64,000 nt of DNA, from IMG/VR virus record IMGVR_UViG_3300032316_001090, positions 8,784 through 72,783 of that record. One strand, given 5' to 3'. The notes beneath the pieces are model-generated. The model was not told where the DNA came from. It searched no databases and was given only the letters and a program-made list of their open reading frames with translations. A program made the position numbers and the translations under genes. Below, piece by piece: positions 30,110 to 45,902 of this stretch. The stretch's first letter is position 1; the number at the start of each line of letters is the position of its first letter. The DNA is from a virus.

Positions 30110-30418
30110 ATGGATACTGAAGCCTTGGTTGCTCACGCACGAGCAAGATTTGATCATGCAGCCGCCCGACGGGTGCTAAAAGAAAAATACGAAGCACGGA
30201 TGGTGTTTGCCTACGCCGGCGGCATGTGGCGTGCTGGGCCAGAATTGCTGACTACACTGCTGGCCTGCGCACAGGACAAAGATATTGTAATTTTAGATTT
30301 ATACGAAACCCCGGTACAGATCACTGTAACAGATTTGTTTGCTCTAGCACACGAACGCTGGCAAGAACAAATGAATGCATGGAAAGTAGAATGGGACGAA
30401 CTAAACAAACGACGTTGA
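30110..30418 (+). CDS. hypothetical protein, 102 aa
   Basis: First ORF after the terminator/promoter; heads the biosynthetic island. Confidence 0.45.
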   Translation: MDTEALVAHARARFDHAAARRVLKEKYEARMVFAYAGGMWRAGPELLTTLLACAQDKDIVILDLYETPVQITVTDLFALAHERWQEQMNAWKVEWDELNKRR

Positions 30419-31212
30419 GCCAAGGTGTGCTAATCTTTGCCTTTAACAACGAGGCAACAGACTACATTGCCATGGCTGCATGGTCGGCCCGGAATATTCG
30501 CAGACATTTGAACTTGCCTGTGGCAGTGGTCACAGATGATCCTGCAGCAGCCGCCGAGCATGAATTTGAACACATCATTGCAACTGTAGCAGACACTGGA
30601 GGCACAAGACACTTTGCCGACTACAATGCCAATGTGACTTGGCACAATGCCGGACGCATCACGGCCTACGAACTGTCACCGTTTGATCAAACCTTGGTAC
30701 TGGATGCTGACTATGTGATAGCCAGTGATAGATTATTGCAAGTACTAACACTACCACAACAATTTGCAGCCTTCAAGGATGGATTTGATCCCAGCGGTAT
30801 GACCAATCTTGAAACATTTGGTGCGTACAATATGCCCATGTGGTGGGCCACTGTAATGATGTTCCGGCGTGGCAACGTCAGCCAATACATATTTGATTCA
30901 ATGCAAATGATACGAGCCAACTGGCAGCACTACCGGGACTTGTACGGTATTCATCAAAGCAACTATCGCAATGACTATGCCCTGAGCATTGCCCTGGGCT
31001 TGGTAGCAGGCGCTGAACAATCAGTGCATGAAATATTCTTCCCCATGCTCAACGTCATGCCAGAACACGGATTAACTTGTGTGGAACAGGATCATTATGA
31101 AGTCACGTACACCAACTCTGAAGGCCGACTCAAAACTTTGAGTTGGGCTGGATTAGACTTTCACGCCATGTGTAAACGGCATCTGGAGGTGATAGTTGCA
31201 GCCCATGGATGA
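30379..31212 (+). CDS. glycosyltransferase, GT-A fold (GT8-like, DXD), paralog 1
   Basis: VLIFAFNNEATDYIAMAAW...PVAVVTDD and LVLDADYVI resemble the GT8/GT-A nucleotide-sugar-binding and DXD motifs; start uncertain (ATGs at 30226, 30379, 30391). Confidence 0.45.
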   Translation: MESRMGRTKQTTLSQGVLIFAFNNEATDYIAMAAWSARNIRRHLNLPVAVVTDDPAAAAEHEFEHIIATVADTGGTRHFADYNANVTWHNAGRITAYELSPFDQTLVLDADYVIASDRLLQVLTLPQQFAAFKDGFDPSGMTNLETFGAYNMPMWWATVMMFRRGNVSQYIFDSMQMIRANWQHYRDLYGIHQSNYRNDYALSIALGLVAGAEQSVHEIFFPMLNVMPEHGLTCVEQDHYEVTYTNSEGRLKTLSWAGLDFHAMCKRHLEVIVAAHG

Positions 31213-31966
31213 ACAAGGTTACTTAATTGTTGCTGTCAACAGCGACACAGTTGACTATCAAGACTGTGCCCGTGCCCTGGCCAAGACCATACGTTACTGG
31301 GATCCGTCAGCACGTATTTGTCTGGTCACAGACAGCCCTTACACTGACCCCATATATGATCACCACAGACAACTTGTGCCACAGGCCAATCCCTATGCCA
31401 ATGATGCACAACTGTTCCGACTCACACCATTTCGTGAAACCATCAAACTGGAAGCAGACATGTTTGTTGTATCACCTATCTCTCATTGGTGGGATCAGTT
31501 TAGACACCGTGATGTTGTAGTATCCACAGGCTGTAGAGACTGGCAGGATCGTGAGAGCACAGCAAGACACTATCGTCGCGTTTTTGATGCCAACAACTTG
31601 CCTGATGTGTACAATGCCATCACATATTGGCGTCGCAGTGAAACTGCCAAGGAATTTTTTGGCTGGATACGAGACATATTTGACAATTGGGCAGAGTTCA
31701 AAAAACTCATCAAGTTTCCTGATGAGACGCCATCAACTGACCTGGTGTATGCCATGGCAGCAGAGATCATGGGTCGGGATCGTGTGACCATGCCATTCAG
31801 CACATATCCAAAGATAGTGCATATGAAACGACACACAGCAGGCACTGCCACGGAAGCCTGGACCAAGGAACTGGTTTGGGAATATCAGGATTGTCGCTTG
31901 CGAATACAAACAGTAGCACAGACAGGTGCGTTTCATTACAATGTCAAACAGTGGCGGGCTCAATGA
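31205..31966 (+). CDS. glycosyltransferase, GT-A fold (GT8-like), paralog 2
   Basis: YLIVAVNSDTVDYQDCARALAKTIRYWDPSARICLVTDS parallels the previous protein; LEADMFVV DXD-like. Confidence 0.45.
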   Translation: MDEQGYLIVAVNSDTVDYQDCARALAKTIRYWDPSARICLVTDSPYTDPIYDHHRQLVPQANPYANDAQLFRLTPFRETIKLEADMFVVSPISHWWDQFRHRDVVVSTGCRDWQDRESTARHYRRVFDANNLPDVYNAITYWRRSETAKEFFGWIRDIFDNWAEFKKLIKFPDETPSTDLVYAMAAEIMGRDRVTMPFSTYPKIVHMKRHTAGTATEAWTKELVWEYQDCRLRIQTVAQTGAFHYNVKQWRAQ

Positions 31967-32355
31967 AAAAAGTGTTTGTCAACGGCACATTTGATATATT
32001 ACATGTGGGACACATTGCCTTGCTTGACTATGCAAAGAGCCTGGGTGACAAGTTGGTTGTAGCAATTGACAGTGATGCTAGAGTTAGATTGCTAAAAGGA
32101 TCCCATAGACCTATAAATTCTCAAAATGAACGAGGCACACTACTCAGCGCACTCAAAAGCGTAGATGAAGTGTTTGTATTTGACACAGACGATGAATTAA
32201 GAAGCCTCATTCAAGCGTGTGATGTCATGGTAAAAGGTTCAGACTACAAACACAAACCCATAGTTGGTCAAGAGGTATGCAAAGAAATAGTTTTTTTTGA
32301 AAGATTAAATGGATACAGCACAACAAACAAAATACAAGATATTGTTAATCGGTGA
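31963..32355 (+). CDS. heptose-1-phosphate nucleotidyltransferase, HldE domain II / HldC-like (cytidylyltransferase fold)
   Basis: KVFVNGTFDILHVGHIALLDYAKSLGDKLVVAIDSDARVRLLKGSHRPIN...VKGSDYK...STTNKI aligns along its length with the HldE adenylyltransferase domain (VFTNGCFDILHAGHVSYL...LIVAVNSDAS...GDSRPVN...VKGGDY...STTNII); ATG overlaps the upstream stop (ATGA). Confidence 0.75.
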   Translation: MKKVFVNGTFDILHVGHIALLDYAKSLGDKLVVAIDSDARVRLLKGSHRPINSQNERGTLLSALKSVDEVFVFDTDDELRSLIQACDVMVKGSDYKHKPIVGQEVCKEIVFFERLNGYSTTNKIQDIVNR

Positions 32356-33070
32356 TGACTGCAATGACGTTTACACATATGGCTATGTGAAACGCATCAG
32401 TCCCGAAGCACCGGTTCCAGTATTTGAACCACACTATACCATTCGCCGGGATGGTATGGCAGGCAATGTAAAAAATAATCTAGAAGCATTGGGATGTGTG
32501 GTTGATTTCATAAGAGACAAAGACAGAGTCAGTGAGAAAAACAGACTGATCGACGAGCGTACCAAACAACAATTACTGCGTGTGGATCGAGATGTTGAAG
32601 GCAACCCCATCACTTTTGAAACAGCAATACCTCCGGTGTACGATGCCATTGTGATCAGCGACTACAACAAAGGCACAGTGACTTACGAACTCATAGAAGA
32701 ACTGATTCGAGAAATCAACATACCCATCTTTGTTGACACAAAGAAAACAGACCTAGCAAGACTCTCAGGATGTTATGTCAAGATCAATGCACTGGAAAAA
32801 AGTCGTGCAACCAGTTTGCCTGACCCAGCGCATTTGATTGTCACACACGGTGACAATGGTGCTGAATGGAATGGCTGGGTATTTCCTGCTGAAATTGTGG
32901 GCGACGTCACTGACGTATGTGGTGCAGGTGATACATTCTTGGCAGCTCTTGCGTACAAATTCCTAGAGACCAAAGACATGAGACAAGCAGTTATATTTGC
33001 AAACAAGGCCGCATCAATAACAGTGCAACACATAGGCGTGTACGCACCAAGACTGGACAAAATCAAATGA
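32309..33070 (+). CDS. sugar (heptose-7-phosphate) kinase, HldE domain I / HldA-like, pfkB family
   Basis: KILLIGDDCNDVYTYGYVKRISPEAPVPV matches the HldE kinase N-terminus (ILVVGDVMLDRYWYG...RISPEAPVPV); C-terminal GAGDTFLAALAY is the pfkB signature. Confidence 0.75.
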   Translation: MDTAQQTKYKILLIGDDCNDVYTYGYVKRISPEAPVPVFEPHYTIRRDGMAGNVKNNLEALGCVVDFIRDKDRVSEKNRLIDERTKQQLLRVDRDVEGNPITFETAIPPVYDAIVISDYNKGTVTYELIEELIREINIPIFVDTKKTDLARLSGCYVKINALEKSRATSLPDPAHLIVTHGDNGAEWNGWVFPAEIVGDVTDVCGAGDTFLAALAYKFLETKDMRQAVIFANKAASITVQHIGVYAPRLDKIK

Positions 33071-33426
33071 CAAGACTAACAGGCAGAGTAGAAAAAGGTT
33101 GGGGTTCAGAAGAAATTTGGGTATCCAATGATCGTTACTGTAGCAAGTTCATGCACTTTAATACAGGTGCAAAATTCAGTATGCATTTTCACCGTGAGAA
33201 GGAAGAGACTTGGCGTATCATGTCAGGCAAGTTTTTGGTCAAACATATTCAAACTGTCAATGCACAGGTGTTTGAAAAGATTGCAGAAGCCGGAGCAGTG
33301 TTTCACAACGCACCTTTGCATCCGCATCAAGTCATCTGCATAGAAGCAGGCACAATATTGGAAGTCAGTACAGCAGATTCGGTAGAAGACAACTATCGTG
33401 TGTTACCCGGAGACAGTCAAAAATGA
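33067..33426 (+). CDS. cupin-fold sugar(-phosphate/nucleotide-sugar) isomerase-like protein, 119 aa
   Basis: KGWGSEEIW ... SMHFHREKEETWRIMSGKFLV resembles the type II phosphomannose-isomerase / FdtA-WxcM cupin motifs; ATGA overlap with the kinase gene. Confidence 0.5.
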   Translation: MTRLTGRVEKGWGSEEIWVSNDRYCSKFMHFNTGAKFSMHFHREKEETWRIMSGKFLVKHIQTVNAQVFEKIAEAGAVFHNAPLHPHQVICIEAGTILEVSTADSVEDNYRVLPGDSQK

Positions 33427-33740
33427 AATACATGGTTGATATCGACGGCACAATATGTAACAACACTTACGGTGATTATCACAGTGCTGTTCCGTTTGTG
33501 GATAGAATTGAACATTTTAATAAATTGTTTGATGCAGGGCATGAAATACATTACTGGACAGCCAGGGGAGGCAACACCGGAATTGACTGGACCATTCTGA
33601 CCGCACAGCAATTTGCCAACTGGCAAGTAAAGTATACAAGTTTGCGAATGCACAAACCAACTTATGATATCTGGATTGATGACAAAGCAATCAATGTAGA
33701 AAATTATTTTGTAGAGAACGCAGACAAAAATGACGCCTGA
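33423..33740 (+). CDS. minimal HAD-superfamily phosphatase (GmhB-like candidate), 105 aa
   Basis: HAD motif I DIDGT (aa 6-10), motif II YWTAR, motif III K (MHKP), motif IV WIDDKA; sits between the kinase and downstream GT genes. Confidence 0.5.
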   Translation: MKYMVDIDGTICNNTYGDYHSAVPFVDRIEHFNKLFDAGHEIHYWTARGGNTGIDWTILTAQQFANWQVKYTSLRMHKPTYDIWIDDKAINVENYFVENADKNDA

Positions 33741-34065
33741 ACAACTGCAACAACTATTCCAGGCCACGCCCGAACCACCACCGCTATTTTATCGATTGTA
33801 CTATGATGATCAGGGACGTCCATTATTCTACAGCATGGAAGATTGCCCTGGTACATACATTGAGATTGACCAGGAAACTTTTGCTCGCAGTGCCTCCAAC
33901 GTGCGTGTGCGTGATGGTCAGTTGGTAGAAATAACGTGGGCAACCACAACAAAATTGGTCCCTGGCAACTGTGGCACACCTTGTCATCCTGACAATGTTG
34001 CTGTCGTTGTTGCCGAGAATCAACCTCATACTTGCTGGAGCAAACAAACATATGAATCAAATTGA
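33730..34065 (+). CDS. hypothetical protein, 111 aa
   Basis: ORF with ATGA-type overlap at both ends. Confidence 0.4.
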   Translation: MTPEQLQQLFQATPEPPPLFYRLYYDDQGRPLFYSMEDCPGTYIEIDQETFARSASNVRVRDGQLVEITWATTTKLVPGNCGTPCHPDNVAVVVAENQPHTCWSKQTYESN

Positions 34066-34978
34066 CATTGCAGACTTGGACTGTGTATACTTGAGTTACG
34101 ACGAACCTGAAAAAGAGGAGTTTTGGGTAAAAATTAAAAACATGATACCTTGGGCCACTCGAGTAGATGGCGTCAAAGGGTCAGACGCTGCACACAAAGC
34201 CGCAGCCGCAGCCAGCACCACTGAACGCTTTGTATTGATCGACGGTGACAACATTCCTGATGTAGCCTTCTTCAACCAAACATTGACATTTGCCACACCC
34301 GACTGGGAACAGGCAGTGTTTCGTTGGCGTGCTCATAATCACATCAATGGATTGATGTATGGCAATGGTGGATTGAGTTCATGGACACGTGAGTTTGTTA
34401 ACAACATGCAAACGCATGAAGCCACAGATGGGCGTGTGGAAACTGAAGTAGAATTTTGTTTTGATCCCTTGTACTGGCCCATGTACGATTGTTACTCAAC
34501 CACATACCCCAATGGCTCTCCTTTTCAAGCATGGCGTGCTGGATTCCGTGAAGGTGTCAAAATGTGCTTGAGCCGAGGCGCAAAACCCACTGTGGAACAG
34601 TTTCAACAACAGGTACATCAACGCAATTTGGATCATTTGACCATTTGGCACAACATCGGTGCAGATGTTAACAATGGACAGTGGGCCATGGCCGGCGCCA
34701 GACAGGGCACATACATGACCATGCTCACAAACTGGGATCATAGACAGGTACAAGACTTTGACGCTCTGTCTGAAATTTGGGACACTGTAAAAAATTCTGA
34801 CCCAAGATTGTTGGGCGGGCGTGTGGCGGATGATCTGCATTCACAATTGGACTTGCCCATGGCCATATTTGAAGGTGAGCAGAGTCGTTTCTTCAAACAA
34901 CATTATCGTTCAAACTGGTCAAATCGTGGCATCATGGTCAGAGAGATTGACGTTATTAGACAACAAGAAGGTTGGTGA
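34052..34978 (+). CDS. glycosyltransferase-like protein (GT-A, DXD), 308 aa
   Basis: VYLSYDEPEKEEFW ... RFVLIDGDNIPD (DGD as the DXD motif); start taken at MNQIDIADLD. Confidence 0.4.
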   Translation: MNQIDIADLDCVYLSYDEPEKEEFWVKIKNMIPWATRVDGVKGSDAAHKAAAAASTTERFVLIDGDNIPDVAFFNQTLTFATPDWEQAVFRWRAHNHINGLMYGNGGLSSWTREFVNNMQTHEATDGRVETEVEFCFDPLYWPMYDCYSTTYPNGSPFQAWRAGFREGVKMCLSRGAKPTVEQFQQQVHQRNLDHLTIWHNIGADVNNGQWAMAGARQGTYMTMLTNWDHRQVQDFDALSEIWDTVKNSDPRLLGGRVADDLHSQLDLPMAIFEGEQSRFFKQHYRSNWSNRGIMVREIDVIRQQEGW

Positions 34979-36378
34979 TGAACAAAGGTGATGAGTCAAT
35001 AGGAACCAAGAGCAAGTTTTTGAATTCTGCTGAGCAGATGAAGGAACAACTAGGTCCTGCACTTTGTTTGGCCAAGTGGAAACAAGTCAGTTTGCACTTG
35101 CCCACCGGGCTGAATAACAGTTGTTATCATCCTCCACTACACAAAATACCTGTAGAAAACTTAGCCGCTGATCCTGGATCCTTGCACAACACACCGCACA
35201 AAAAAGCGCAACGTGTGATGATGTTGCAGAACGAAAAGCCCGCAGAATGTCAGTACTGCTGGAACATGGAAGCGGAAAACAAGCTGAGTGATCGTCACTA
35301 TAGATCTGGCGAGCCCTGGGCGGCTGTGGACTTTGAATCAATAAAGAATAGCACAGGAGAAGAAAATGACGTTATCCCTAGCTACGTTGAGGTTAATTTT
35401 AATAATGTGTGTAATCTCATGTGCAGTTATTGCAGTCCGCAATTCTCTAGCAGCTGGCAACAAGAAGTGGACCGATTGGGTGGCTACCCTACTGCTAGGG
35501 TTCACAATGATCCTGGGCATTTTGGTGGAGATCGCAGGGTTATACCGGTTAGAGAGCATAACCCTTATGTAGAAGCCTTTTGGCAGTGGTGGCCTACCTT
35601 GTACCCACACCTAGAACATTTTAGAATGACTGGTGGTGAGCCACTGTTAGACAAGAATACCTATCGTGTGTTTGATTATGTGTTGAAGAACCCCAGTCCC
35701 AAACTGCATTTGAATGTCACCAGTAACTTCAGTGTAGATGAAAAGTCATGGCAAAAGTACTTGGCGTATGTAAAACAAATCTGTGATGGTCGCATTGAGC
35801 ATTTCATGCAGTATGTGAGCTTGGACGGCTGGGGATCTCAAGCAGAATACATGCGACATGGTCTGGATTTTAACTTGTTGTGGGATCGAGTAAATCAATT
35901 CTTAACTGAAGTGCCCAACCACTCGAGCCTTACATTTATCATCACAATGAACAATCTCAGTGTGACCAGTTTGGACAAGTTATTTGCTGGCATATTGGGC
36001 CTGCGAAAAGTCTACAGTCATACCTATCAACGTGTGTGGTTTGACACCCCTGTATTACGAGAACCTGCCTGGCAAAGCCTGCAGATCTTGCCTGAAAGTT
36101 ATGCAGAAAAATTAGAATGGTTGTGGGCATGGATGATGCGTCAGATTGAAACAGAGGCAGAACCATTCAAAGGATTCAAAGACTATGAACTGCACAGACT
36201 GGATCGTGACATTGCCTGGATGCGATCAGCACAATTAGAAAATCACTCTCAAGCCAAGGCCGACTTCTATCGTTTTTTCAATGAACATGACCGCCGGCGC
36301 GGTACGGACTTTTTGAAGACATTTCCAGAAATGAAAACCTGGTGGGAGGAGTGTGCATACCATGCTAGGCAATCGTAA
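34978..36378 (+). CDS. radical SAM enzyme, subfamily A (N-terminal Cys4 domain + CX3CX2C)
   Basis: CNLMCSYC at nt 35410-35433; GGEPLL glycine-rich SAM motif; N-terminal C-x18-C-x41-C-x2-C; tgATG overlap with the upstream gene. Confidence 0.7.
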   Translation: MNKGDESIGTKSKFLNSAEQMKEQLGPALCLAKWKQVSLHLPTGLNNSCYHPPLHKIPVENLAADPGSLHNTPHKKAQRVMMLQNEKPAECQYCWNMEAENKLSDRHYRSGEPWAAVDFESIKNSTGEENDVIPSYVEVNFNNVCNLMCSYCSPQFSSSWQQEVDRLGGYPTARVHNDPGHFGGDRRVIPVREHNPYVEAFWQWWPTLYPHLEHFRMTGGEPLLDKNTYRVFDYVLKNPSPKLHLNVTSNFSVDEKSWQKYLAYVKQICDGRIEHFMQYVSLDGWGSQAEYMRHGLDFNLLWDRVNQFLTEVPNHSSLTFIITMNNLSVTSLDKLFAGILGLRKVYSHTYQRVWFDTPVLREPAWQSLQILPESYAEKLEWLWAWMMRQIETEAEPFKGFKDYELHRLDRDIAWMRSAQLENHSQAKADFYRFFNEHDRRRGTDFLKTFPEMKTWWEECAYHARQS

Positions 36379-37468
36379 AATCATTGTGGATGAATGGGCG
36401 GAAGTATGGGACCTGCTGAAATCTTATGCTGATGAGAGTTTTTGGCAATGGCCTGCGGAACCAGACTCTGACGCTGTTTACATTGTGGGCAGAGTTGTGC
36501 TCAAAGAAAACTGGGTGGCCATAACTGAATGGGCTGACAAATACCCAGGGCACATTGTATTCTCTAATCCTGCTGAAGGCAGTGAAACTATACTGTTACA
36601 ACTGCGTAGATTGGTAATAACAGAACATGTGCGTGATGGGCGTATTGGATTATTGACATCTGGCAGTATGGAACCAGGATGGAATTACTGCAAAACAGAC
36701 TGTTACTTTGCCAACATTGTGGAGTACCTGGAAAACTTACGTGCGCACGAGTCTTATCCACAAGTGTATCACAAACTTAACAAACCCTACAACTTCTTGT
36801 TTTTAAACGGACGACTACGTCCACATCGCAAGTACTTGATAGATACATTTCGATCACGTGGATTGCTGGATCGTGCTTTATGGACCAACCTACAAAGTAC
36901 TGTAGACATGACATGGTCAAGCCAATTAGAAACCAACAAACTTGAGCAGATAAGACTGTTGCCACCAGAATACGAAATTGATCGTGCTCGCCCAAATTTG
37001 ACGCCAGCTATGTTGGACGCAGGATTTGCCAAACATCAACTGTTTAACAACACCTGGGGAGATGCCGAAGTCAATCCTGCTGCCTACATTGACACTTACT
37101 TCAGTGTGGTTACAGAAACCATTTATGACTACCCGTACACATTCCGCACAGAAAAGATCTGGAAACCAATGATCATGTGTCATCCATTTGTGGCAGCAGC
37201 CAACCGTGGGTATTATAGAGACTTACACTCAGCAGGATTCCAAACATTTGGGCACTTGATTGACGAAACATTTGACCAGATTGATGACCCACGAGATCGT
37301 GCTGACAGAATAGTTGACGTTGTTGCTGATATATGTTATAATGGTGCTGCCAGTTTCTTGGAGTCAGCTAGATCGGTTTGTAAATACAACTATCAACAAC
37401 TTCGCGAACACAATCGTCGCGAACGTGCAGAACTTCCTGAACGACTGGCCCAATACATAAATGAATGA
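36353..37468 (+). CDS. glycosyltransferase, fucosyltransferase-like TEK-motif family (GT10/GT11-like), paralog 1
   Basis: TFRTEKIWKPMIMCHPFVAAANRGY resembles the alpha1,3-fucosyltransferase motif (YVTEKFW..A....VPVV.G); paralogous to 46926..48116 and 48100..49191. Confidence 0.45.
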   Translation: MHTMLGNRKIIVDEWAEVWDLLKSYADESFWQWPAEPDSDAVYIVGRVVLKENWVAITEWADKYPGHIVFSNPAEGSETILLQLRRLVITEHVRDGRIGLLTSGSMEPGWNYCKTDCYFANIVEYLENLRAHESYPQVYHKLNKPYNFLFLNGRLRPHRKYLIDTFRSRGLLDRALWTNLQSTVDMTWSSQLETNKLEQIRLLPPEYEIDRARPNLTPAMLDAGFAKHQLFNNTWGDAEVNPAAYIDTYFSVVTETIYDYPYTFRTEKIWKPMIMCHPFVAAANRGYYRDLHSAGFQTFGHLIDETFDQIDDPRDRADRIVDVVADICYNGAASFLESARSVCKYNYQQLREHNRRERAELPERLAQYINE

Positions 37469-38810
37469 TTTAGAATTTAAACAACAGGTGTTGGACTCTG
37501 TGTCCCCAAGTTTTTGTGCAGCGAAATGGTACAATGCTACCATTTGGTTAGGAAGTGGGCAGACCACAAGTTGTCATCACCCGCCAGCTCATTTGATTGA
37601 CATTGATAAAGTCAATAACAACTCTAGGCTGCTGCACAATACTGATCAAAAGAAAGCGGACCGACGCAAGATGTTGGCTGGAGAGCGTCCTGCAGGCTGT
37701 GAATACTGCTGGAAGATTGAAGATATGGACACCAATGCTGTGAGTGACCGTGTGTACAAATCAAAAATTTATCCCATAAAGGCCTTGCATGAAGCAGTCA
37801 ACACCCCCATCCAAGATGATGTCAATCTTAGAACACTGGAAATCAGTTTCGATCGCACCTGTCAATTTGCTTGTTCTTATTGCAATCCTGCTTTCAGTAG
37901 CACTTGGGTTAACGATATACGAAAACATGGACCCTATAACGGGCTGGTCAGCGATGGCAGGAACCATTTTACTCATACTCATGATAGCAGTCAACTTTAT
38001 AAATTCGGTGAAACTAATCCTTACGTGGAAGCCTTCTTTGACTGGTGGGAAAGAGACCTCCACAGAACACTGCAAGAACTCCGAATAACCGGCGGCGAGC
38101 CCTTGATGTCAGGCTATACCTGGAAACTGATAGAGTGGTTCAAAACCAATCAAGGACGTAGTACAACCCGATTGGCTATCAATTCAAACTTGGGCATTGA
38201 CTTGGACAAGATCAAAGAATTTGCTGTGGCAATAGCCACATTGCCCAAGGTAGATCTATATACTTCAATGGAAGCCACCTGGGCGCAGGCTGAATACATT
38301 CGTGACGGGCTAGATTACAATCAATGGCTCGACAATGTGTTGTTTTTGTTACAAGGTCAATTTGTTAGTGCTGTGCATGTGATGTGTACCGTCAATGCCT
38401 TGTGTCTGGACAGTCTTGTGGACCATCTCAATCTGATGTTGAGTTTAAAGCAACGTTATGGTCGCGATCAAGTTAACTTTACATTGAACATCTTGCGCTT
38501 TCCTAGTTTTCAAAGTGCGTTGGTATTGCCGGATGACATTCGAAATCGTTATTGTTTGCAGTTGAAAGCATGGTTGTTCCACAATCGTGAAAACCCTTGC
38601 TTGCATGAACACGAAATAAATCATGTACAACGCCTGATTGATTACCTGGACATAGTAAAAACTCCGCACTCAGAAGCATTTGAATTATCCAAACTATTAA
38701 ATGACTTCCGGCAGTTTTACACACAATACGATCAGCGTAGATCAAAAGATTTTAGCACAGCATTTCCCAATTTGAAAGAATGGTATGACAGCTTACAAAT
38801 ACAACAGTAG
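37461..38810 (+). CDS. radical SAM enzyme, subfamily A (paralog of 34978..36378)
   Basis: CQFACSYCNPAFSSTW (CX3CX2C); ITGGEPLM; same N-terminal C-x18-C-x41-C-x2-C spacing as 34978..36378. Confidence 0.7.
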   Translation: MNDLEFKQQVLDSVSPSFCAAKWYNATIWLGSGQTTSCHHPPAHLIDIDKVNNNSRLLHNTDQKKADRRKMLAGERPAGCEYCWKIEDMDTNAVSDRVYKSKIYPIKALHEAVNTPIQDDVNLRTLEISFDRTCQFACSYCNPAFSSTWVNDIRKHGPYNGLVSDGRNHFTHTHDSSQLYKFGETNPYVEAFFDWWERDLHRTLQELRITGGEPLMSGYTWKLIEWFKTNQGRSTTRLAINSNLGIDLDKIKEFAVAIATLPKVDLYTSMEATWAQAEYIRDGLDYNQWLDNVLFLLQGQFVSAVHVMCTVNALCLDSLVDHLNLMLSLKQRYGRDQVNFTLNILRFPSFQSALVLPDDIRNRYCLQLKAWLFHNRENPCLHEHEINHVQRLIDYLDIVKTPHSEAFELSKLLNDFRQFYTQYDQRRSKDFSTAFPNLKEWYDSLQIQQ

Positions 38811-40047
38811 TGATCTAGTAAGACCCACGGAATTAACCGAACGTGAAGAATTCTTATTGAAAGATTCAAAGACATTCTGCATATATCCCTGGATTCATCT
38901 ACATGCTTACCCCACAGGCGAAGCATACCCTTGTTGTCATGCTGAAATGAAGCCAGGTGTGGTGGGCAACTGTAGAACAAATACACTAGAAGAAATATGG
39001 CAGGATGCACCCATGCAGAAGCTACGTGCAGATATGTTGAGCGAAACACCACATGCTGCCTGTACACGTTGCTATGAGCAGGAAGAATCTGGATTCTTCT
39101 CAGGTCGTCGGTCAGCTAACAAACATCATGGGCATCATATTAAAAAGCTAGAAAAGAACCCATTTGAAATGACTTATTGGGACATTCGTTTCTCAAACCT
39201 ATGCAATTTGAAGTGTCGTTCATGCGGGCATATCTTCAGCAGCCAATGGTATCAGGATCAAGCCAAGCTGGCTGGAGGCGACTGGAAAGAACGCAACACT
39301 GTGTTAAACTATGCAGGGCGCACAGAAACAGACATGTGGACACAACTAGAGCCGCACTTGGATTATGTAGAGCAGATATACTTTGCCGGCGGCGAACCAT
39401 TGTTGATGGAAGAACACTACAATATTTTAGAAGAGCTTGTGAAACGTGGACGGTTTGATGTTAGATTAATATACAACACAAACTTCACGCACACAGACTT
39501 AAAAGGTCGCTCAGTTTTTGAATACTGGAAACAATTCAAAAGTGTGGCAGTGGGTGCCAGTTTGGATGCCATGGGCCGTCCTGCAGAGTATATTAGAAAA
39601 GGCACTACCTGGGCCGACGTGGTAAAGAATCGTCATGACATGATACGCACCTGCCCCCAGGTGGACTTTTATATTTCGCCCACACTCAGCATAATGAATG
39701 CTTGGCACCTGCCAGACTTTCACAGAGAATGGGTGGCCCATGGATTGATTCGCGCTCAGGATCTAAATGTAAATATTCTTCAAGACCCAGCCTATTTCAG
39801 AATAGATATTGCTCCTGCTGACTACAAACAACGACTAGAAGCCAAGTACCGTAAACATCTTGACTGGATCAGTGATAGAGATCCGCTACAACGTGCCACA
39901 CAGGGCTTTGAAAGTGCTATAACGTTTATGAATGCCACAGACAACACCAATCTCATTGATACATTCTGGCGTAAAACACATGAGTTAGATGCCATACGAA
40001 ATGAAAACATCCTGGATGTACTGCCAGAACTAAAGGCTTTAAAATGA
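38785..40047 (+). CDS. radical SAM enzyme, subfamily B
   Basis: CNLKCRSCGHIFSSQW (CX3CX2C); AGGEPLLM; N-terminal C-x17-CC...C-x2-C. Confidence 0.7.
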   Translation: MTAYKYNSSDLVRPTELTEREEFLLKDSKTFCIYPWIHLHAYPTGEAYPCCHAEMKPGVVGNCRTNTLEEIWQDAPMQKLRADMLSETPHAACTRCYEQEESGFFSGRRSANKHHGHHIKKLEKNPFEMTYWDIRFSNLCNLKCRSCGHIFSSQWYQDQAKLAGGDWKERNTVLNYAGRTETDMWTQLEPHLDYVEQIYFAGGEPLLMEEHYNILEELVKRGRFDVRLIYNTNFTHTDLKGRSVFEYWKQFKSVAVGASLDAMGRPAEYIRKGTTWADVVKNRHDMIRTCPQVDFYISPTLSIMNAWHLPDFHREWVAHGLIRAQDLNVNILQDPAYFRIDIAPADYKQRLEAKYRKHLDWISDRDPLQRATQGFESAITFMNATDNTNLIDTFWRKTHELDAIRNENILDVLPELKALK

Positions 40048-41252
40048 ATGTGCCACACGATAAATTTTGCGTATTGCCCTGGGTCAGCCTAGAAGCTTCA
40101 CCCATTGGCACAGTGCGTCCTTGCTGCTTGGCCGACGACGAATTGGTAGATGATGCAGGCCACAAGTTCTCACTGTTGTCAGCTGACTTTGAAAGCATAC
40201 AAAATTCTCGTGCAATGACACAATTGCGTGAAGAGTTCTTGGCAGGTAAAAAACCGCAGACCTGTCGCAAGTGCTGGAATGAAGAACGTGCTGGCCGTAC
40301 AAGCAAACGCATGCACACCCTGGACAGAATGAAGCACATGGGCATCAGCAATGAATGGACCACCGATGCCAAGCCCCTGATGTTCCTAGATCTAAAGCTG
40401 GGCAACATCTGCAATTTAAAATGCCGCATATGCGGCTCATGGTCATCAAGTCAATTTGCCACAGAAGAACTCAATGACATGCCGCCGGATGAGGATAAAA
40501 AGAAATCGTTTCCCTATCAAATGCTGCGAGCCGGAGCCTGGCCCAGAGAAAATCAATCATTTTGGGCAGAAATTGATCAGTGTTTAAATCACATACGCTA
40601 CATTGAATTCACTGGTGGCGAACCATTCATGATTCGAGAACACTTTGCCATGTTACAAGGCATTGTGGATCGTGGTATTGCACATCAGGTAGAGATACAC
40701 TACAACACCAATGGCACACACTATCCTGCAGAAGCAGAATCAATTTGGCGGCATTTTAAAACAGTGGAAGTGGCATTCTCCATAGATGATCTGGGTGCAA
40801 GATTTGAATATCAACGAACCAATGCAGACTGGGCTGTGGTGGAAGACACAATCACAAGTTTTCAATATCTACGAGATCAAATGCCCAACTTGAGACTGCA
40901 ATGTTGTTCAACCGTGAACATATTCAATGTGCGTTACATTGACAAACTGGCCCACTGGATAGCACTGCAACGCTTTGACTTTGTGTACTGGAACATGATG
41001 CATGACGCATGGTATTTTTCCATTGCCACACTACCAGACAGTGCTAAAACGCAAATCACTGATCATTTACGTTCAGCTGACGTGCCCACACAGTATCGTG
41101 AAGAATTTGATCGTATCATTGACTTTATGAATCGTGGTGCCTCATCAGACGGATTTATGTTGCGCATGAAGATTGCAGACTTGGATCGCAAACGCAATCA
41201 AAACTTGCGCACAGTTGAACCTGAACTTGCGGACTTGATTGATTACCAATGA
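40044..41252 (+). CDS. radical SAM enzyme, subfamily B
   Basis: CNLKCRICGSWSSSQF (CX3CX2C); TGGEPFM; N-terminal C-x17-CC-x45-C-x2-C; ATGA overlap. Confidence 0.7.
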   Translation: MNVPHDKFCVLPWVSLEASPIGTVRPCCLADDELVDDAGHKFSLLSADFESIQNSRAMTQLREEFLAGKKPQTCRKCWNEERAGRTSKRMHTLDRMKHMGISNEWTTDAKPLMFLDLKLGNICNLKCRICGSWSSSQFATEELNDMPPDEDKKKSFPYQMLRAGAWPRENQSFWAEIDQCLNHIRYIEFTGGEPFMIREHFAMLQGIVDRGIAHQVEIHYNTNGTHYPAEAESIWRHFKTVEVAFSIDDLGARFEYQRTNADWAVVEDTITSFQYLRDQMPNLRLQCCSTVNIFNVRYIDKLAHWIALQRFDFVYWNMMHDAWYFSIATLPDSAKTQITDHLRSADVPTQYREEFDRIIDFMNRGASSDGFMLRMKIADLDRKRNQNLRTVEPELADLIDYQ

Positions 41253-42526
41253 GTCTTTGCATGGCACCTTGGGTGCATACTTATTTGAGCCCACAAACAG
41301 AACGTCGCATGTGTTGTGCAAGTCGTGAGCCTGCACAAAACTTTGAACAGTACATAGACACAGCCGCTGGCACAGGCCGGTATATCCCCATCACCTTGGA
41401 CGAACACTGGAACTCGCCACACATGATGAGTGTGCGCAGTAGAATGATGGCAGGTGAAACACTGCCTGAGTGTGAAGTGTGCAATGACAAGTTGTTAAAC
41501 ACTGATGTTTACCGCACATATTTTTGGCAGTTGTTCAAACATAAGTATCCTGATATTTGGGAAACTACAGACACCGCGGGTCGCACCACAATGCAGCCTG
41601 TGAGTTGGGATTATAGATTTTCAAATTTGTGCAATTTTAAATGTAGAACCTGCGGTGACATGTTGAGCAGTAGTTGGGAAACAGAACAACGCCAACATGG
41701 AATGACAGATTGGTCAAATCCCAAGAACACCTGGATGAGACCTGAAGTGCGGCGAGAAATTTCTGCATTTCAAGACAGTCAAATTGAACAAGAGTTTGCT
41801 GATGCTGTAGAACAACACCGTGTTGAAGAAGTGTACTGGGTAGGCGGAGAGCCACTTATGTACGAACAACATTGGCGTTATATGAAACGCATAGTTGAAC
41901 TAGGGGATGGACCACGAGTATATGCTAGATACAATACAAATTTATCCAGAGTGGATTATCGGGGTGTTAACTTATATTGTGATATTCTTTCTGGGTTGCG
42001 TGATTGGCAGATATGTGCAAGTCTCGACGGCACAGGCGCAATTGGTGAATACATCAGAACAGGTCTTGACTATGATCGCTGGCTTGAGCATTTTGGTCAA
42101 GCAGTTGAGATCCAACGTCACAGACGTCAAGTCCGAATTGACTTTACGCTCACTTTGCCCGGAATGTTCGAAGTTACACGCATTAGACAACTTGCCGAAA
42201 CATACGGGGTCGACGTCCTTGCCAAAGTGATATTTTCATTCTCTCCAGACATTGTGATGAGTCCATTGGCTTTGCCTAGATCTTTGTTAGAACCTTGGAT
42301 TGATGAACTTGTGCCCCAAGTGGATGGCGCATTACGTGATGTGTTGTTACAACTAAAAACTAGGCCTACTTTTGAAGAACAATGGCCTGATCAGTATGCA
42401 AAAGGTCTTGCAAAAGGCAAGGCACGTGTGTTACAATTAGAAAGCATACGCACACAGAAGATCACCATGACAGAAATACTTGCTGATCGTTCTGCGGTGC
42501 TAGAATGGTGGAACAACATTGCTTGA
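41249..42526 (+). CDS. radical SAM enzyme, subfamily B
   Basis: CNFKCRTCGDMLSSSW (CX3CX2C); VGGEPLM; N-terminal C-x17-CC-x51-C-x2-C; ATGA overlap. Confidence 0.7.
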   Translation: MSLCMAPWVHTYLSPQTERRMCCASREPAQNFEQYIDTAAGTGRYIPITLDEHWNSPHMMSVRSRMMAGETLPECEVCNDKLLNTDVYRTYFWQLFKHKYPDIWETTDTAGRTTMQPVSWDYRFSNLCNFKCRTCGDMLSSSWETEQRQHGMTDWSNPKNTWMRPEVRREISAFQDSQIEQEFADAVEQHRVEEVYWVGGEPLMYEQHWRYMKRIVELGDGPRVYARYNTNLSRVDYRGVNLYCDILSGLRDWQICASLDGTGAIGEYIRTGLDYDRWLEHFGQAVEIQRHRRQVRIDFTLTLPGMFEVTRIRQLAETYGVDVLAKVIFSFSPDIVMSPLALPRSLLEPWIDELVPQVDGALRDVLLQLKTRPTFEEQWPDQYAKGLAKGKARVLQLESIRTQKITMTEILADRSAVLEWWNNIA

Positions 42527-43544
42527 TAGAATTGAAATAGACCTGCGTGGCGCAGACACGCTCACATTGTACATTGATGTCACAGACAACAGTCTCAGTC
42601 GCAAATGGCTGGCTGCACTGAACAATATTTTACGCAGTGATTTGCATTTAGAAAAAAACTATTGTTGGCTAGGATGGACTGAAAGTGCGCGAACAGCAGA
42701 ATATATAATTGAGAGCATCAATGCCAGTATTCAAGCAATAAACACAGCTAATTTAGGGTACACCATTGATGATTATTTTACCGTGGGAGAGACCATACAA
42801 GATAATTTGAATGTCGACCATGATCGTATGAATCAACTGCATCGGTACTTTGAAGACCTACAGGGTCACTCTGGGCACATGAGTGCTTATTGGAGCAAAG
42901 CAGATGCTGCCACACGTTGGCACATACGCCAACTGAACTTGTTGTGTCATGAATATGAGAGTCTTGTGCTCAGCATGCGCAAGGTCATACAAGCACCTGC
43001 CTGGCGCCGACCTAGTCAGTTGATGTGCTGGCTCAATGCACCACGTTTTGCATTGGACACAGAAGATTTTGAACTGTTTGGAATAGACACACTCAACAGA
43101 CAAATGGGTGCAGTGTACGTTGGTGTAAACAAAGCAGTGGGCAAAACACACTGGGAAGTATTCAATGACGAAGGGCGTGATGTGGACGAGTTGGTTACCA
43201 CAGGACTGCGTAATCAAACTGAGGCAGCTGGCGATTTTGATATTGAGTGGGCACGGGATCCAGGTGCATATCCGTGGCAAATACAAAAAATTGCAGAATT
43301 TCGAACATGGTTAGTAGACAATGGATTTGATCCCGAAGATCGGTCGCTGACCATTGGCCATCCCAAGGTAGCGCAAGTTAATTTGTCAAAATCATTTGGC
43401 ACCTTGGACTACAATAAAATTTGGCAACAGATTTCAAATAGATTGGATGTATATAAAATTCGTACCAGTGACGCAGAAGCTACATATGAGTATCGCTGGA
43501 GCGATCGAGATTATGCTGAACAGCAAATAAGGAGATTAACATGA
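42519..43544 (+). CDS. hypothetical protein, 341 aa
   Basis: ORF overlapping the last radical-SAM gene by 8 nt. Confidence 0.5.
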   Translation: MLDRIEIDLRGADTLTLYIDVTDNSLSRKWLAALNNILRSDLHLEKNYCWLGWTESARTAEYIIESINASIQAINTANLGYTIDDYFTVGETIQDNLNVDHDRMNQLHRYFEDLQGHSGHMSAYWSKADAATRWHIRQLNLLCHEYESLVLSMRKVIQAPAWRRPSQLMCWLNAPRFALDTEDFELFGIDTLNRQMGAVYVGVNKAVGKTHWEVFNDEGRDVDELVTTGLRNQTEAAGDFDIEWARDPGAYPWQIQKIAEFRTWLVDNGFDPEDRSLTIGHPKVAQVNLSKSFGTLDYNKIWQQISNRLDVYKIRTSDAEATYEYRWSDRDYAEQQIRRLT

Positions 43545-43642
43545 AATGGTTACGCAGACTTTGGGATAGAATTACTTTGGAAATTCGTTACAGAAAAAAA
43601 CTTAAAGAACTACGCAAACGAGATCCATTTATTTACAAATGA
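43541..43642 (+). CDS. small basic peptide ORF, 33 aa (MKWLRRLWDRITLEIRYRKKLKELRKRDPFIYK)
   Basis: AAGGAG 7 nt upstream, one of the few strong SD sequences in the window; its ATG overlaps the upstream stop (ATGA) and its TGA overlaps the downstream ATG (ATGA). Confidence 0.3.
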   Translation: MKWLRRLWDRITLEIRYRKKLKELRKRDPFIYK

Positions 43643-45120: not shown

Positions 45121-45902
45121 TTAAATCTACAAAAACTCGATACTGCAATGAATTTTGGTACCATAGCAATGATCTAATGATTGGTACCAGCATTGATCGT
45201 TATGGTGAATACAGTCAGTGCGAAATTGATTTTATCCTGAGTTTTTTAACTGATGATGCTGTGGTATATGATGTGGGAGCCAACATAGGATATCATACCA
45301 CAGCATTTGCCACACGGGCCAGACGTGTGTATGCATTTGAACCGCACCCTGGTAACTATGCTTTGTTAGAAAAAAACACTGAAAATTTTGACAATGTGTT
45401 CTTGGGACAGTATGCAGTAAGCAACACTAGATCAACATGCTATATCTCAGATTATGATCCTGATCAGACCAGCAATTTTGGTGCTGTCAGCGTGGTTGGT
45501 AGCACCACAGGAATTCCGGTCCGTGCCATTGATTTAGACACTGCCGGCTTGGAGCCGCCGGACTTTGTCAAGATTGATGCAGAAGGTCACGAATTACAGG
45601 TGCTGCAAGGTTGTCAACAAATCATACAACAATATTGTCCTGTGGTCTACTACGAAGCACATGAAAGCCCAGATCTTAAACAAATATATCTGCTATTAGG
45701 AGATGACAGATATAGATTTTATTGGGCGCAGGTCAACAATTATAATCCTGCTAATTTTGCCGGTAACACTGACAATATTTTTGGCGGGAGTGCATTGATG
45801 AGTATTCTAGCCTGGCCTAGAACGCTAGGAGAGTTGCCAATGACTCCTGTAACAGGGCCCGACGACACTGCCAATAGATTTTATCGGGACGGGCATCCTT
45901 AG
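45117..45902 (+). CDS. FkbM-family methyltransferase
   Basis: VYDVGANIGYHTTAFA...VYAFEPHPGNYALL is the FkbM-domain SAM-binding motif; ATGA overlap with the upstream gene. Confidence 0.6.
   Translation: MIKSTKTRYCNEFWYHSNDLMIGTSIDRYGEYSQCEIDFILSFLTDDAVVYDVGANIGYHTTAFATRARRVYAFEPHPGNYALLEKNTENFDNVFLGQYAVSNTRSTCYISDYDPDQTSNFGAVSVVGSTTGIPVRAIDLDTAGLEPPDFVKIDAEGHELQVLQGCQQIIQQYCPVVYYEAHESPDLKQIYLLLGDDRYRFYWAQVNNYNPANFAGNTDNIFGGSALMSILAWPRTLGELPMTPVTGPDDTANRFYRDGHP

Follow-up and report, generated by a model that had tools for sequence, protein, structure and literature searches.

A four-gene phage cassette predicted to make nucleotide-activated heptose, with a cupin proposed in the place of GmhA

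Introduction

ADP-heptose synthesis, whose committed first enzyme is taken to be GmhA, serves as a target for antibiotics and gives rise to a major innate-immune signal; the GmhA and GmhB steps are common to the bacterial alpha-GDP and beta-ADP heptose routes. We examined a phage locus that encodes homologs of other heptose enzymes and no recognizable GmhA. The locus lies in a 64-kb stretch of DNA, called the window here, from a jumbo T4-like myovirus that is Rak2/Atu_ph07-like. A preliminary description of this DNA had read four genes as a nucleotide-heptose route, and had suggested that the cupin among them either replaces GmhA or is a 3,4-ketoisomerase. The profile margins given below make such a route the best reading of the four predicted enzymes. 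We consider it rather probable that the genes form a complete NDP-heptose route, in which the cupin is a non-orthologous sedoheptulose-7-P isomerase and a small HAD protein (the mini-HAD) is the 7-phosphatase.

Results

Four overlapping genes

The cassette consists of four overlapping genes in the order NT-kinase-cupin-HAD. They encode, in turn, an HldC-like nucleotidyltransferase (NT), an HldA-like kinase, a cupin of 119 aa and a capless HAD of 105 aa. Independent assemblies gave identical calls for all four ORFs, with coordinates unchanged from the preliminary description. As described there, the NT and kinase are separate genes in the reverse of the HldE domain order; their overlap is 47 nt and out-of-frame. 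ATGA start/stop overlaps occur at the upstream-GT/NT, kinase/cupin and cupin/HAD junctions, and the cassette genes are translationally coupled. The features of the region are as follows.

30379..31212, + strand: wGTa, 277 aa, function not assigned, maybe a glycosyltransferase; LDADY DxD-like motif; start from an independent gene call
31205..31966, + strand: wGTb, GT-A-fold glycosyltransferase-like, from a model and a PHROG match (phrog_1903); stop overlaps the NT start (ATGA)
31963..32355, + strand: NT, HldC-like sugar-1-phosphate nucleotidyl(adenylyl)transferase, 130 aa; HxGH and STT motifs; TIGR02199; phrog_7878
32309..33070, + strand: HldA-like pfkB kinase, 253 aa; TIGR02198; phrog_8133; BLASTP to HldE
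33067..33426, + strand: single-domain metal cupin, 119 aa, proposed sedoheptulose-7-P isomerase; H40, H42, E47, H87
33423..33740, + strand: capless HAD phosphatase, 105 aa, of the 1xpj/AfhF/EcbF-BcbF type, proposed heptose-1,7-bisphosphate 7-phosphatase; phrog_1238; PDB matches
33730..34065, + strand: 111-aa protein without a family match; overlaps the HAD stop codon; kept after the cassette in window-type loci
34052..34978, + strand: 308-aa protein without a family match; downstream partner kept in window-type loci; start from an independent gene call
34972..45902, + strand: sugar-tailoring island with five twitch/SPASM radical-SAM paralogues, 371-aa protein paralogues, a carbamoyltransferase and an FkbM methyltransferase

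When the region was compared at the DNA level with 50,697 phage records, the only match was an irrelevant one of 213 bp.

The nucleotidyltransferase and kinase resemble the two halves of HldE

Over its whole length the NT is 45% identical to residues 341-471 of E. coli HldE (E 1e-29), in agreement with the whole-length alignment described previously. Among NCBIfam models it scores highest on TIGR02199 (rfaE_dom_II), with 122.7 bits compared to 64.6 bits for TagD, so that HldE domain II is preferred by ~58 bits over the glycerol-3-P cytidylyltransferases that had been named as a possible better match. A PDB search placed 5x9q first (E 2e-20), above 1coz, and both the HxGH and (I)STT motifs are present. 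HldC/HldE domain II is thus the best-matching family, at a score below the curated TIGR02199 equivalog cut-off of 181.5 bits.

The kinase is 28% identical to E. coli HldE residues 10-299 (BLASTP E 1e-22, 22% gaps), and the RISPEAPVPV block and GAGDTF motif noted earlier are present together with NxxE (INALE). TIGR02198 (rfaE_dom_I) is the best model at 133.8 bits and ribokinase scores 47.3 bits; this difference of ~86 bits runs against the suggestion that the protein might be a ribokinase-like enzyme for another sugar. The top PDB match is 4e84. Profile and motifs together place the kinase with HldA/HldE domain I among pfkB kinases. It is compact, with 253 aa for ~315 model positions, ~60 aa shorter than HldA, and its 133.8 bits fall in three stretches, whereas the TIGR02198 equivalog cut-off is 345 bits with full-length coverage. 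All four cassette proteins lie under curated equivalog cut-offs, which counts against the heptose reading. The E-values for the NT and kinase nevertheless put their sequence similarity to HldE far beyond chance. Judged from homology alone, the predicted NT would form an ADP sugar rather than one with another nucleotide. Split HldA/HldC genes also occur in Neisseria and Ralstonia (PMC10221265).

Related loci add further heptose enzymes and no GmhA

Phage NDP-heptose synthesis had been thought unusual, which did not hold: the cassette is on at least 178 IMG/VR contigs, and marine cyanomyoviruses such as P-SSM2 and S-CAM1 carry the same four families side by side, where they have been annotated for years. 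We collected 80 IMG/VR kinase relatives, of which the 66 loci flanked on each side by 1.5 kb or more served as the counting set. A short SDR adjoins the cassette in 53 of these 66 and scores 210-242 bits on TIGR02197 (ADP-glyceromanno-heptose 6-epimerase) compared to ~54 bits for GalE. An HldD-type 6-epimerase next to the kinase implies heptose. In 65/66 loci no more than 2.5 kb separates the cupin from the kinase; in one locus, L081, the NT-kinase pair has no adjoining cupin. On one contig from a metagenome-assembled genome (MAG) the order is fused HldE, HldD, cupin, GmhB. A recognizable phosphatase is absent nearby in 39 of the 66, suggesting that these phages lean on other enzymes for some steps, and reliance on host GmhA is equally possible. 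One weak kinase match, MT838225, was set aside as a canonical fused HldE with HldD that is probably bacterial.

In three cyanophages (Bellamy, SynMITS9220M01 and AG-345-E15) the kinase and NT are swapped for non-homologous HddA/HddC-like enzymes, with the cupin kept between them. The Bellamy kinase matches HddA over its full length at 278.8 bits, the next family scoring 86 bits, and Bellamy also retains a mini-HAD nearby.

The reported lack of an SIS isomerase was borne out, as no GmhA/SIS-like ORF was detected in the 64-kb window by phmmer at E<=10 with filters off. The window and 88 related loci (~20 kb inspected in each) likewise gave no such ORF (best E=3), and tblastn detected none in any cassette-bearing cyanophage genome. 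Since ~20 kb per locus was inspected of genomes of 350-480 kb, a very divergent isomerase could lie elsewhere. Among ORF families within related cassettes considered as a hidden isomerase or phosphatase, four (f3, f4, f0 and f8) are 2OG-Fe(II) oxygenases and none is SIS; f18 is an NT5C-like HAD and not an SIS isomerase, and f55 and f43 had no family matches.

The mini-HAD occupies the GmhB slot and belongs to another family

The 105-aa protein carries all four HAD motifs attributed to it (DIDGT, WTARG, K78 and IDD) and aligns with the small HADs 9iqw (E 7e-12), for which we found no literature, and 1xpj (E 1.5e-5). Its motifs, absence of a cap, significant family similarity and size within the ~100-135 aa range identify it as a small capless HAD. 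It matches phrog_1238 (E 8e-25) and, weakly, NF046079 and TIGR01689 (25.1 and 21.9 bits, under the curated NCBIfam cut-offs). It is 32-39% identical to the RB69 gp51/AfhF-type HAD, and homologs occur in 388 phage records, RB69-like phages included.

The protein had been placed where GmhB would be expected. The position stands, as the HAD slot in related loci holds a GmhB-like or NT5C-like HAD instead, including a true GmhB homolog in 12/66 loci (130-133 bits on NF006506). Family membership does not: the mini-HAD is of the 1xpj/AfhF type, with no TIGR00213 or NF006506 match and a BLASTP E of 1.4 to E. coli GmhB. Because true GmhB homologs fill the same slot, the link between the two is one of functional equivalence only. 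AfhF is a Mg-dependent arabinose-1,5-bisphosphate 5-phosphatase in a phage pathway that follows the same isomerase-kinase-phosphatase-transferase logic (PMC13326640).

A metal cupin between kinase and phosphatase

The 119-aa cupin does lie between the kinase and phosphatase with the HxH motif noted earlier. H40-x-H42, E47 and H87 are invariant in 34 homologs and form a canonical 3His-1Glu metal site. The fold is a beta-barrel and not SIS. Against Pfam PF01050, the PMI C-terminal domain, the cupin is borderline (21.3 bits; gathering threshold 23.6); its relative P0248 passes that threshold at 31 bits, and several relatives carry precomputed PF01050 matches. Among its structural neighbors are D-lyxose isomerases, cupin PGI and a phosphomannose isomerase of 112 aa. 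Searches of the PDB by single sequence and by profile returned generic metal cupins only, oxalate decarboxylase first, and are uninformative for function. Among cellular genome contigs, cupin homologs turned up at only 11 loci, most of them on MAG contigs of possible phage origin; the sole isolate genome is Marinoscillum, where the context is unrelated.

We propose that the cupin stands in for GmhA by functional analogy and not by family membership. GmhA's own reaction is Zn-assisted (PMC11056994). We found no report of a cupin-type heptose isomerase acting on sedoheptulose-7-P in the searchable literature, and the candidate role of the cupin in this cassette is not previously described.

Flanking genes

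wGTa had no Pfam, NCBIfam or PHROG match; in window-type loci it stands ahead of the cassette without exception, the order wGTa-wGTb-NT-kinase is kept in 8 related loci, and it may be a glycosyltransferase. The AlphaFold2 model of wGTb (pLDDT 78.5, pTM 0.80) had glycogenin (GT8), the LH3 GT domain and RmlT as its top Foldseek PDB matches, at E ~3e-7 and a TM-score of only ~0.44. No GT9-type heptosyltransferase (E. coli WaaC/WaaF-like) was found in any locus, which is a point against the heptose route. Downstream, the 111-aa protein had no match in Pfam, NCBIfam or PHROG and is syntenic in five loci (L013, L017, L036, L041 and L042), and the 308-aa protein had none in Pfam or NCBIfam. The island matches NF033640 (322.6 bits) and the Pfam families Radical_SAM/SPASM, Carbam_trans_N/C and Methyltransf_21, with the carbamoyltransferase in two pieces. 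A carbamoyltransferase also adjoins the cassette in cyanophages and many IMG/VR loci, and we infer that the island belongs to the same pathway as the cassette. In both jumbo phages and cyanophages, Ser/Thr-rich tail fibers border the cassette, and in some lineages the cassette sits among replication genes.

Discussion

Proposed pathway

In the route that we propose, the metal cupin would isomerize sedoheptulose-7-P, yielding D-glycero-D-manno-heptose-7-P, which is the step that GmhA, the missing SIS enzyme, otherwise carries out. Homology gives the next step to the HldA-like pfkB kinase, which would phosphorylate O1 and form heptose-1,7-bisphosphate. The mini-HAD would strip the 7-phosphate, as its AfhF-type homology and the equivalence of the GmhB slot suggest, and the HldC-like transferase, again by homology, would form the nucleotide sugar. 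Because an HldD-like epimerase is missing from the window cassette, the product would remain D,D. The two upstream GT-like proteins presumably use the activated heptose, which the downstream radical-SAM, carbamoyl- and methyl-transferase island may tailor. The end target would be a phage-specified glycan, for which virion fibers, the host envelope and DNA are candidate acceptors; as with the cupin reaction, we infer the acceptor. Our literature search on phage heptosylation returned nothing relevant.

Alternative functions for the cupin and the sugar

One alternative, which we regard as improbable, grants that NDP-heptose is made and has the cupin act later, as a tailoring C3/C5 epimerase or 3,4-ketoisomerase (the CapF cupin domain, RmlC/DdahB or FdtA-like), while host GmhA supplies heptose-7-P. 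A 4,6-dehydratase with a reductase is the setting of 6-deoxy-heptose epimerases; Bellamy-type cassettes have a GMD-like 4,6-dehydratase and an RmlD-like reductase adjoining the cupin, and an SDR adjoins it in most loci. However, the common adjacent SDR is HldD-like and not a 4,6-dehydratase, for which reason we rejected it as a reductase partner of the cupin, and the cupin is present without any SDR in the window cassette and in L005, L034 and L063, where none lies within 10 kb. Judged by fold neighbors and by co-occurrence with a 4,6-dehydratase that would supply a 4-keto substrate, the cupin does not fall with the RmlC/FdtA-type enzymes, and its family has the strict 3His-1Glu site whereas RmlC and FdtA enzymes are metal-independent. 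Moreover, a single tailoring cupin would need both ADP-beta- and GDP-alpha-linked substrates. Heptose is also absent from cyanobacterial LPS (PMC4390846), which makes a supply of heptose-7-P from those hosts unlikely. We favor replacement of GmhA over 3,4-ketoisomerization because the cupin is kept with the kinase regardless of the SDR, is kept with HddA/HddC-like enzymes and is never accompanied by an SIS protein in the loci and cyanophage genomes inspected.

It is quite unlikely, in our estimation, that the four-step logic serves a different sugar, for example by converting fructose-6-P to mannose-6-P with a PMI-like cupin followed by NDP-beta-mannose formation, or a pentose of the kind handled by the phage arabinose pathway. 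In favor of this reading, the cupin's one family-level resemblance in sequence is to the type II phosphomannose isomerase domain, the characterized mini-HAD relative acts on the arabinose bisphosphate, the kinase and NT score under the equivalog cut-offs with a kinase shorter than HldA, and the window's own cassette lacks HldD. Against this, the kinase homologs beside the HldD-like 6-epimerases and GmhB homologs are 55-92% identical to the window kinase, and the Bellamy kinase fits the HddA heptose-7-P kinase model.

We consider it very improbable that the cupin is no pathway enzyme and simply accompanies the cassette, for example as an oxygenase or as a small protein with a regulatory or metal-binding role. 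In favor of that view, the family carries the label 'cysteine dioxygenase' in RefSeq and PHROG, its neighbors by sequence and fold include oxalate decarboxylase and dioxygenases, and 2OG-Fe(II) oxygenases occur nearby in several loci. Against it, the cupin is translationally coupled by ATGA within the operon, is linked in 65/66 loci and across two non-homologous kinase/NT versions, is highly conserved (66-100% identity across the 120 best of 2,671 cluster representatives), and is naturally fused to the HldC-like NT and to two kinds of phosphatase (mini-HAD and NT5C-HAD).

Returning to the cupin as the sedoheptulose-7-P isomerase, a broader version of the proposal is possible though doubtful. 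The cupin would be the founder of a second class of sedoheptulose-7-phosphate isomerase, distinct from the SIS enzymes and common among phages, and the ADP-heptose would glycosylate the phage's own components (the flanking Ser/Thr-rich tail fibers, or DNA) and not host LPS.

If the pathway is correct, the cupin would be a clean non-orthologous displacement of GmhA, and two widespread annotations, 'cysteine dioxygenase' for the cupin and 'phosphoheptose isomerase' for the HAD, would be corrected. It would account for the ability of phages infecting heptose-free hosts, marine cyanobacteria among them, to make heptose from central metabolism, and the purpose of the cyanophage 'LPS genes', a question since the first cyanophage genomes, would become directly testable. 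A four-gene ADP-heptose set of ~1.8 kb would also suit synthetic biology as a module.

Comparison with known systems

The window shares with the bacterial ADP-heptose pathway its four-step logic, a kinase homologous to HldA/HldE-N and a transferase homologous to HldC/HldE-C, and related phage loci add HldD and GmhB homologs. It differs in having the cupin instead of SIS-type GmhA, a capless HAD phosphatase that is sequence-unrelated to GmhB, the order NT-kinase, and neither HldD nor a GT9 heptosyltransferase.

The cyanomyovirus 'LPS/heptose' cassettes (P-SSM2 PSSM2_309-313, S-CAM1, S-CAM3, S-SSM7, S-T4, P-TIM68 and S-SM2) comprise the same families (PHROGs 7878, 8133, 7851 and 1238), their NT also overlaps the kinase, and they adjoin carbamoyltransferase and tail-fiber genes. 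Their proteins, however, are only 31-47% identical to those of the window, and their order is NT-kinase-HAD-cupin followed by an HldD-like SDR, whereas the window has the cupin before the HAD and no HldD. In GenBank their cupin is labeled 'cysteine dioxygenase' or 'nucleotidyltransferase' and their HAD 'phosphoheptose isomerase'.

The GDP-D-glycero-alpha-D-manno-heptose pathway (GmhA, HddA, GmhB, HddC) has a phage version in Synechococcus phage Bellamy with the same pathway logic as the window. The two share the mini-HAD and the cupin (36% identical, E 2e-24), but Bellamy uses a GHMP kinase, an NTP_transferase-fold enzyme, a dehydratase and a reductase where the window has a pfkB kinase and a cytidylyltransferase-fold enzyme.

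The phage UDP-arabinofuranose pathway of arabinosyl-5-hydroxycytosine DNA (RB69 gp51-55, DLP3 gp81-83, HY126 AfhE/AfhF; PMC13326640) likewise combines an isomerase, an anomeric kinase, an omega-phosphatase and a nucleotidyltransferase, with a phosphatase of the same 1xpj-like small HAD family. Unlike the window, it has an SIS isomerase, a kinase and transferase of other folds that are fused, a pentose and a DNA acceptor (PMC13326640). Compared to the known cupin-type isomerases (PF01050 type II PMI, the 112-aa T. kodakarensis PMI 7zvy, D-lyxose isomerase and archaeal cupin PGI), the window cupin is sub-threshold in sequence, and its proposed substrate is a heptulose phosphate.

Genomic setting of the cassette

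The window belongs to a jumbo T4-like myovirus, with genes for a gp5-like hub, a gp6-like baseplate wedge and tail-fibre-like proteins. The wedge protein is ~33% identical to its counterparts in Atu_ph07, Phosso, XbC2 and Rak2-like phages (350-490 kb), and no DNA-level relative of the window was found among 50,697 deposited phages. The cassette occupies a run of same-strand genes between tail-fibre genes, coupled through ATGA start/stop overlaps, and identical 130-, 253-, 119- and 105-aa products were called in independent metagenome assemblies.

Genes of the cassette run
30379-31212, plus strand: GT-like protein wGTa, upstream of the nucleotidyltransferase
31205-31966, plus strand: GT-like protein wGTb, upstream of the nucleotidyltransferase
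31963-32355, plus strand: nucleotidyltransferase (NT), 130 aa
32309-33070, plus strand: kinase, 253 aa
33067-33426, plus strand: cupin, 119 aa
33423-33740, plus strand: HAD, 105 aa
After the HAD, plus strand: two uncharacterised proteins

Immediately after the baseplate-wedge gene there is one unbroken 5,212-aa ORF (10849-26487, plus strand), presumably encoding a giant structural or fibre protein. Some related loci likewise have family f13 proteins, 2,600-2,700 aa long, beside the cassette. On the minus strand lie genes for a ThyX flavin-dependent thymidylate synthase (56524-57210) and for a large protein resembling HNH endonucleases (phrog_1314; 60829-62151).

Kinase and nucleotidyltransferase

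The preliminary description of a split HldE at this locus is borne out by alignments to both HldE domains and by the independent gene calls. The NT aligns over its full length with the C-terminal domain of E. coli HldE (45% identity, E 1e-29), and its top match among solved structures is 5x9q, Burkholderia HldC. The kinase, a compacted form ~60 residues shorter, aligns with HldE residues 10-299 (E 1e-22) and retains the RISPEAPVPV block, the NxxE motif and GAGDTF. The NT scored 122.7 bits on the HldE-domain-II model versus 64.6 bits for glycerol-3-P cytidylyltransferase, and the kinase 133.8 bits on the HldE-domain-I model versus 47.3 bits for ribokinase, with both HldE scores under the NCBI equivalog cut-offs. 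A transferase closer to other cytidylyltransferases and a ribokinase-like kinase had been named as the outcomes that would speak against heptose, and the profile margins therefore favour heptose on both counts.

Enzymes accompanying the kinase in related loci

We surveyed the best 80 IMG/VR loci, taking counts from the 66 whose kinase is flanked by 1.5 kb or more on each side and scoring presence within 2.5 kb of it.

Genes within 2.5 kb of the kinase (66 loci)
NT: 64/66
Cupin: 65/66
Short HldD-like SDR: 53/66
GmhB homologue: 12/66
Mini-HAD: 8/66
NT5C-like HAD, identified by Pfam: 7/66
No recognisable phosphatase: 39/66

On the ADP-glyceromanno-heptose 6-epimerase model the short SDR scored 210-242 bits, versus ~54 bits for GalE; the GmhB homologues reached 130-133 bits on the GmhB model. 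According to the literature some bacteria can dispense with GmhB, which may account for the phosphatase-less loci. On one MAG contig (L099), a fused HldE in canonical order is followed by HldD, cupin and GmhB. From the survey and this contig, homology thus identifies four of the five canonical ADP-L,D-heptose enzymes across the family, and it is highly likely that the cassette makes an NDP-heptose. GmhA is the sole canonical enzyme never found, and the cupin is the extra gene, missing from one locus (L081).

One IMG/VR lineage (L025, L037-L040, L044-L047, L051, L065) carries three to four different 2OG-Fe(II) oxygenase genes around the cassette, one of them between cupin and NT, and no recognisable phosphatase was found at its cassette. 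In a 342-kb phage contig (L005/L007), an apparent tRNA-like sequence, recognised by eye, lies right after the cupin stop at 10361-10440.

The cupin as a candidate isomerase

The preliminary description saw no SIS-domain isomerase, and this holds: the 64-kb window encodes no SIS protein, and phmmer with E. coli GmhA, run with filters off on ~0.95 million residues from the window and 88 related loci (each covered over ~20 kb), returned a best E of 3. Similarly, a tblastn search of all deposited phages with GmhA as query, which recovered homologues down to 31% identity, gave no match in the cassette-bearing cyanophage genomes. Heptose is absent from cyanobacterial LPS (PMC4390846), so the hosts of these cyanophages are unlikely suppliers of heptose-7-P.

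Two roles had been put forward for the cupin, replacement of GmhA or a later ketoisomerase step. As a 4-keto-sugar epimerase or ketoisomerase it would be expected to act with a redox partner; however, the cassette SDR is missing in the window and several other loci where the cupin is still present, and the SDR usually found near the cupin resembles HldD, not a 4,6-dehydratase. The cupin thus appears independent of a redox partner, which counts against this second role.

Replacement of GmhA is the role that stands, probably, and it draws on gene exchange and fusion as well as on the missing SIS protein. Bellamy, SynMITS9220M01 and AG-345-E15 have a GHMP kinase with a full-length match to the HddA heptose-7-P kinase model (278.8 bits) in place of the pfkB kinase, and an HddC-like NTP-transferase in place of the cytidylyltransferase-fold NT. 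The cupin is kept between these two enzymes, and in Bellamy a mini-HAD is also retained nearby. In bacteria, the isomerase and phosphatase steps are common to the GDP-alpha and ADP-beta heptose routes. Among metagenomic proteins, the cupin is fused with an HldC-like NT (P0338), with a mini-HAD (P0252) and with an NT5C-like HAD (P0248), the last passing the Pfam threshold for the phosphomannose isomerase (PMI) domain.

The window cupin itself matches the type II PMI domain at borderline level, and its metal site (H40-x-H42...E47...H87) is invariant. It was modelled as a 3His-1Glu barrel (pLDDT 84). A fold search placed near it a 112-aa archaeal phosphomannose isomerase, D-lyxose isomerases and a cupin phosphoglucose isomerase, among others, but is non-discriminating: scores at least as high went to the CapF cupin domain, KdgF and dioxygenases. 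Such a metal site would fit the chemistry of the GmhA reaction, a Zn-assisted aldose-ketose isomerisation (PMC11056994). On balance we lean towards the cupin being the sedoheptulose-7-P isomerase.

The mini-HAD phosphatase

The 105-aa HAD has all four HAD motifs and resembles two small capless HADs, 9iqw (E 7e-12) and 1xpj. It shares 32-39% identity with a small HAD present in 388 phage records, among them those of RB69-like, Acinetobacter and Shewanella T4-like phages. This protein, known as RB69 gp51, DLP3 gp81 or HY126 AfhF, is reported to be a Mg-dependent phosphatase that turns arabinose-1,5-bisphosphate into arabinose-1-phosphate (PMC13326640). In related heptose cassettes the phosphatase slot is filled by GmhB-like or NT5C-like HADs instead. 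Together, the AfhF kinship and these slot equivalents support, by analogy, a role as heptose-1,7-bisphosphate 7-phosphatase. The proposal that this HAD stands in GmhB's place is upheld to that extent; membership of the GmhB family is not, as neither profile models nor direct comparison with GmhB found similarity.

Glycan island and fate of the sugar

The cassette sits in a 25-kb glycan island inside the tail-fibre module, along with radical-SAM paralogues, a carbamoyltransferase, an FkbM methyltransferase and a separate aminotransferase and SDR pair.

Other features of the island
34972-42526 and 36353-37468, plus strand, with 46926-48116 and 48100-49191, minus strand: five tandem radical-SAM paralogues and three ~370-aa paralogues
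43639-44091 and 44167-45120, plus strand: Nol-like carbamoyltransferase in two ORFs, the middle of its N-terminal domain (profile ~170-273) missing
53213-55217, minus strand: DegT/EryC1 aminotransferase (189 bits) overlapping an SDR nearest dTDP-glucose 4,6-dehydratase (114 bits)

The radical-SAM proteins have an N-terminal twitch/SPASM domain (322.6 bits on NF033640 for the first), and the uncharacterised ~370-aa paralogues are interleaved among them; the radical-SAM proteins may be sugar-tailoring enzymes. The two-ORF carbamoyltransferase may reflect a split or degenerate gene or else an unusual variant; that of locus L085 is likewise in two pieces. The aminotransferase and SDR form a predicted second route, to an amino-deoxy-sugar nucleotide. 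The wGTb model has a GT-A fold closest to glycogenin (GT8), with modest TM-scores, and no GT9 heptosyltransferase was found in the window or related loci.

Other lineages have the cassette amid replication genes or beside a QueE-like gene. QueE is a radical-SAM enzyme of 7-deazaguanine synthesis. In L060, L061, L063, L066, L067, L080 and L081, the next gene after the cassette has a QueE-like N-terminus (by eye) and precedes a flap-endonuclease-like gene, and in L004 the cassette lies between gp32/UvsX/helicase and DnaB; these contexts are replication modules, not tail fibre. Possible uses of the heptose are virion glycosylation, host-surface remodelling or DNA glycosylation.

Comparison with known systems

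The preliminary description was largely right in its interpretation and overstated novelty in calling phage NDP-heptose synthesis unusual. Kinase and cupin match nearly the same set of ~35 marine cyanomyovirus records, kinase relatives are encoded on at least 178 IMG/VR stretches, and split HldA/HldC is already known from Neisseria and Ralstonia (PMC10221265). Of the cupin's 2,671 cluster representatives, the best 120 are 66-100% identical to the window copy, and phage contigs of 340-480 kb are among the contexts. In P-SSM2 and S-CAM1 the order is NT, kinase, HAD, cupin and then SDR, flanked by carbamoyltransferase and tail-fibre genes.

All four proteins are assigned to existing PHROGs, and a genome announcement counts such genes among heptose-related LPS genes (PMC7378029). 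GenBank labels in cyanophages are inconsistent, with the HAD called 'phosphoheptose isomerase' and the cupin 'cysteine dioxygenase' or 'putative nucleotidyltransferase'; mis-annotation of these two small proteins is systematic in RefSeq cyanophage records (L001, L003, L008) and PHROGs 1238 and 7851. The cassette is a known, poorly annotated phage module. What is new is the strong comparative case for a small cupin in place of GmhA; the searchable literature yielded no earlier example.

Tail-fibre or large structural genes recurrently adjoin the cassette in cyanophages and several jumbo-phage groups, a placement that resembles the 'host recognition cluster' of cyano- and pelagimyophages (PMC7029224). 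A parallel in logic is the phage UDP-arabinose route, which has the same isomerase-kinase-phosphatase-transferase scheme as that proposed for the window cassette and whose AfhF-type phosphatase finds its best structural match in 1xpj (PMC13326640), a structure that the mini-HAD matches too.
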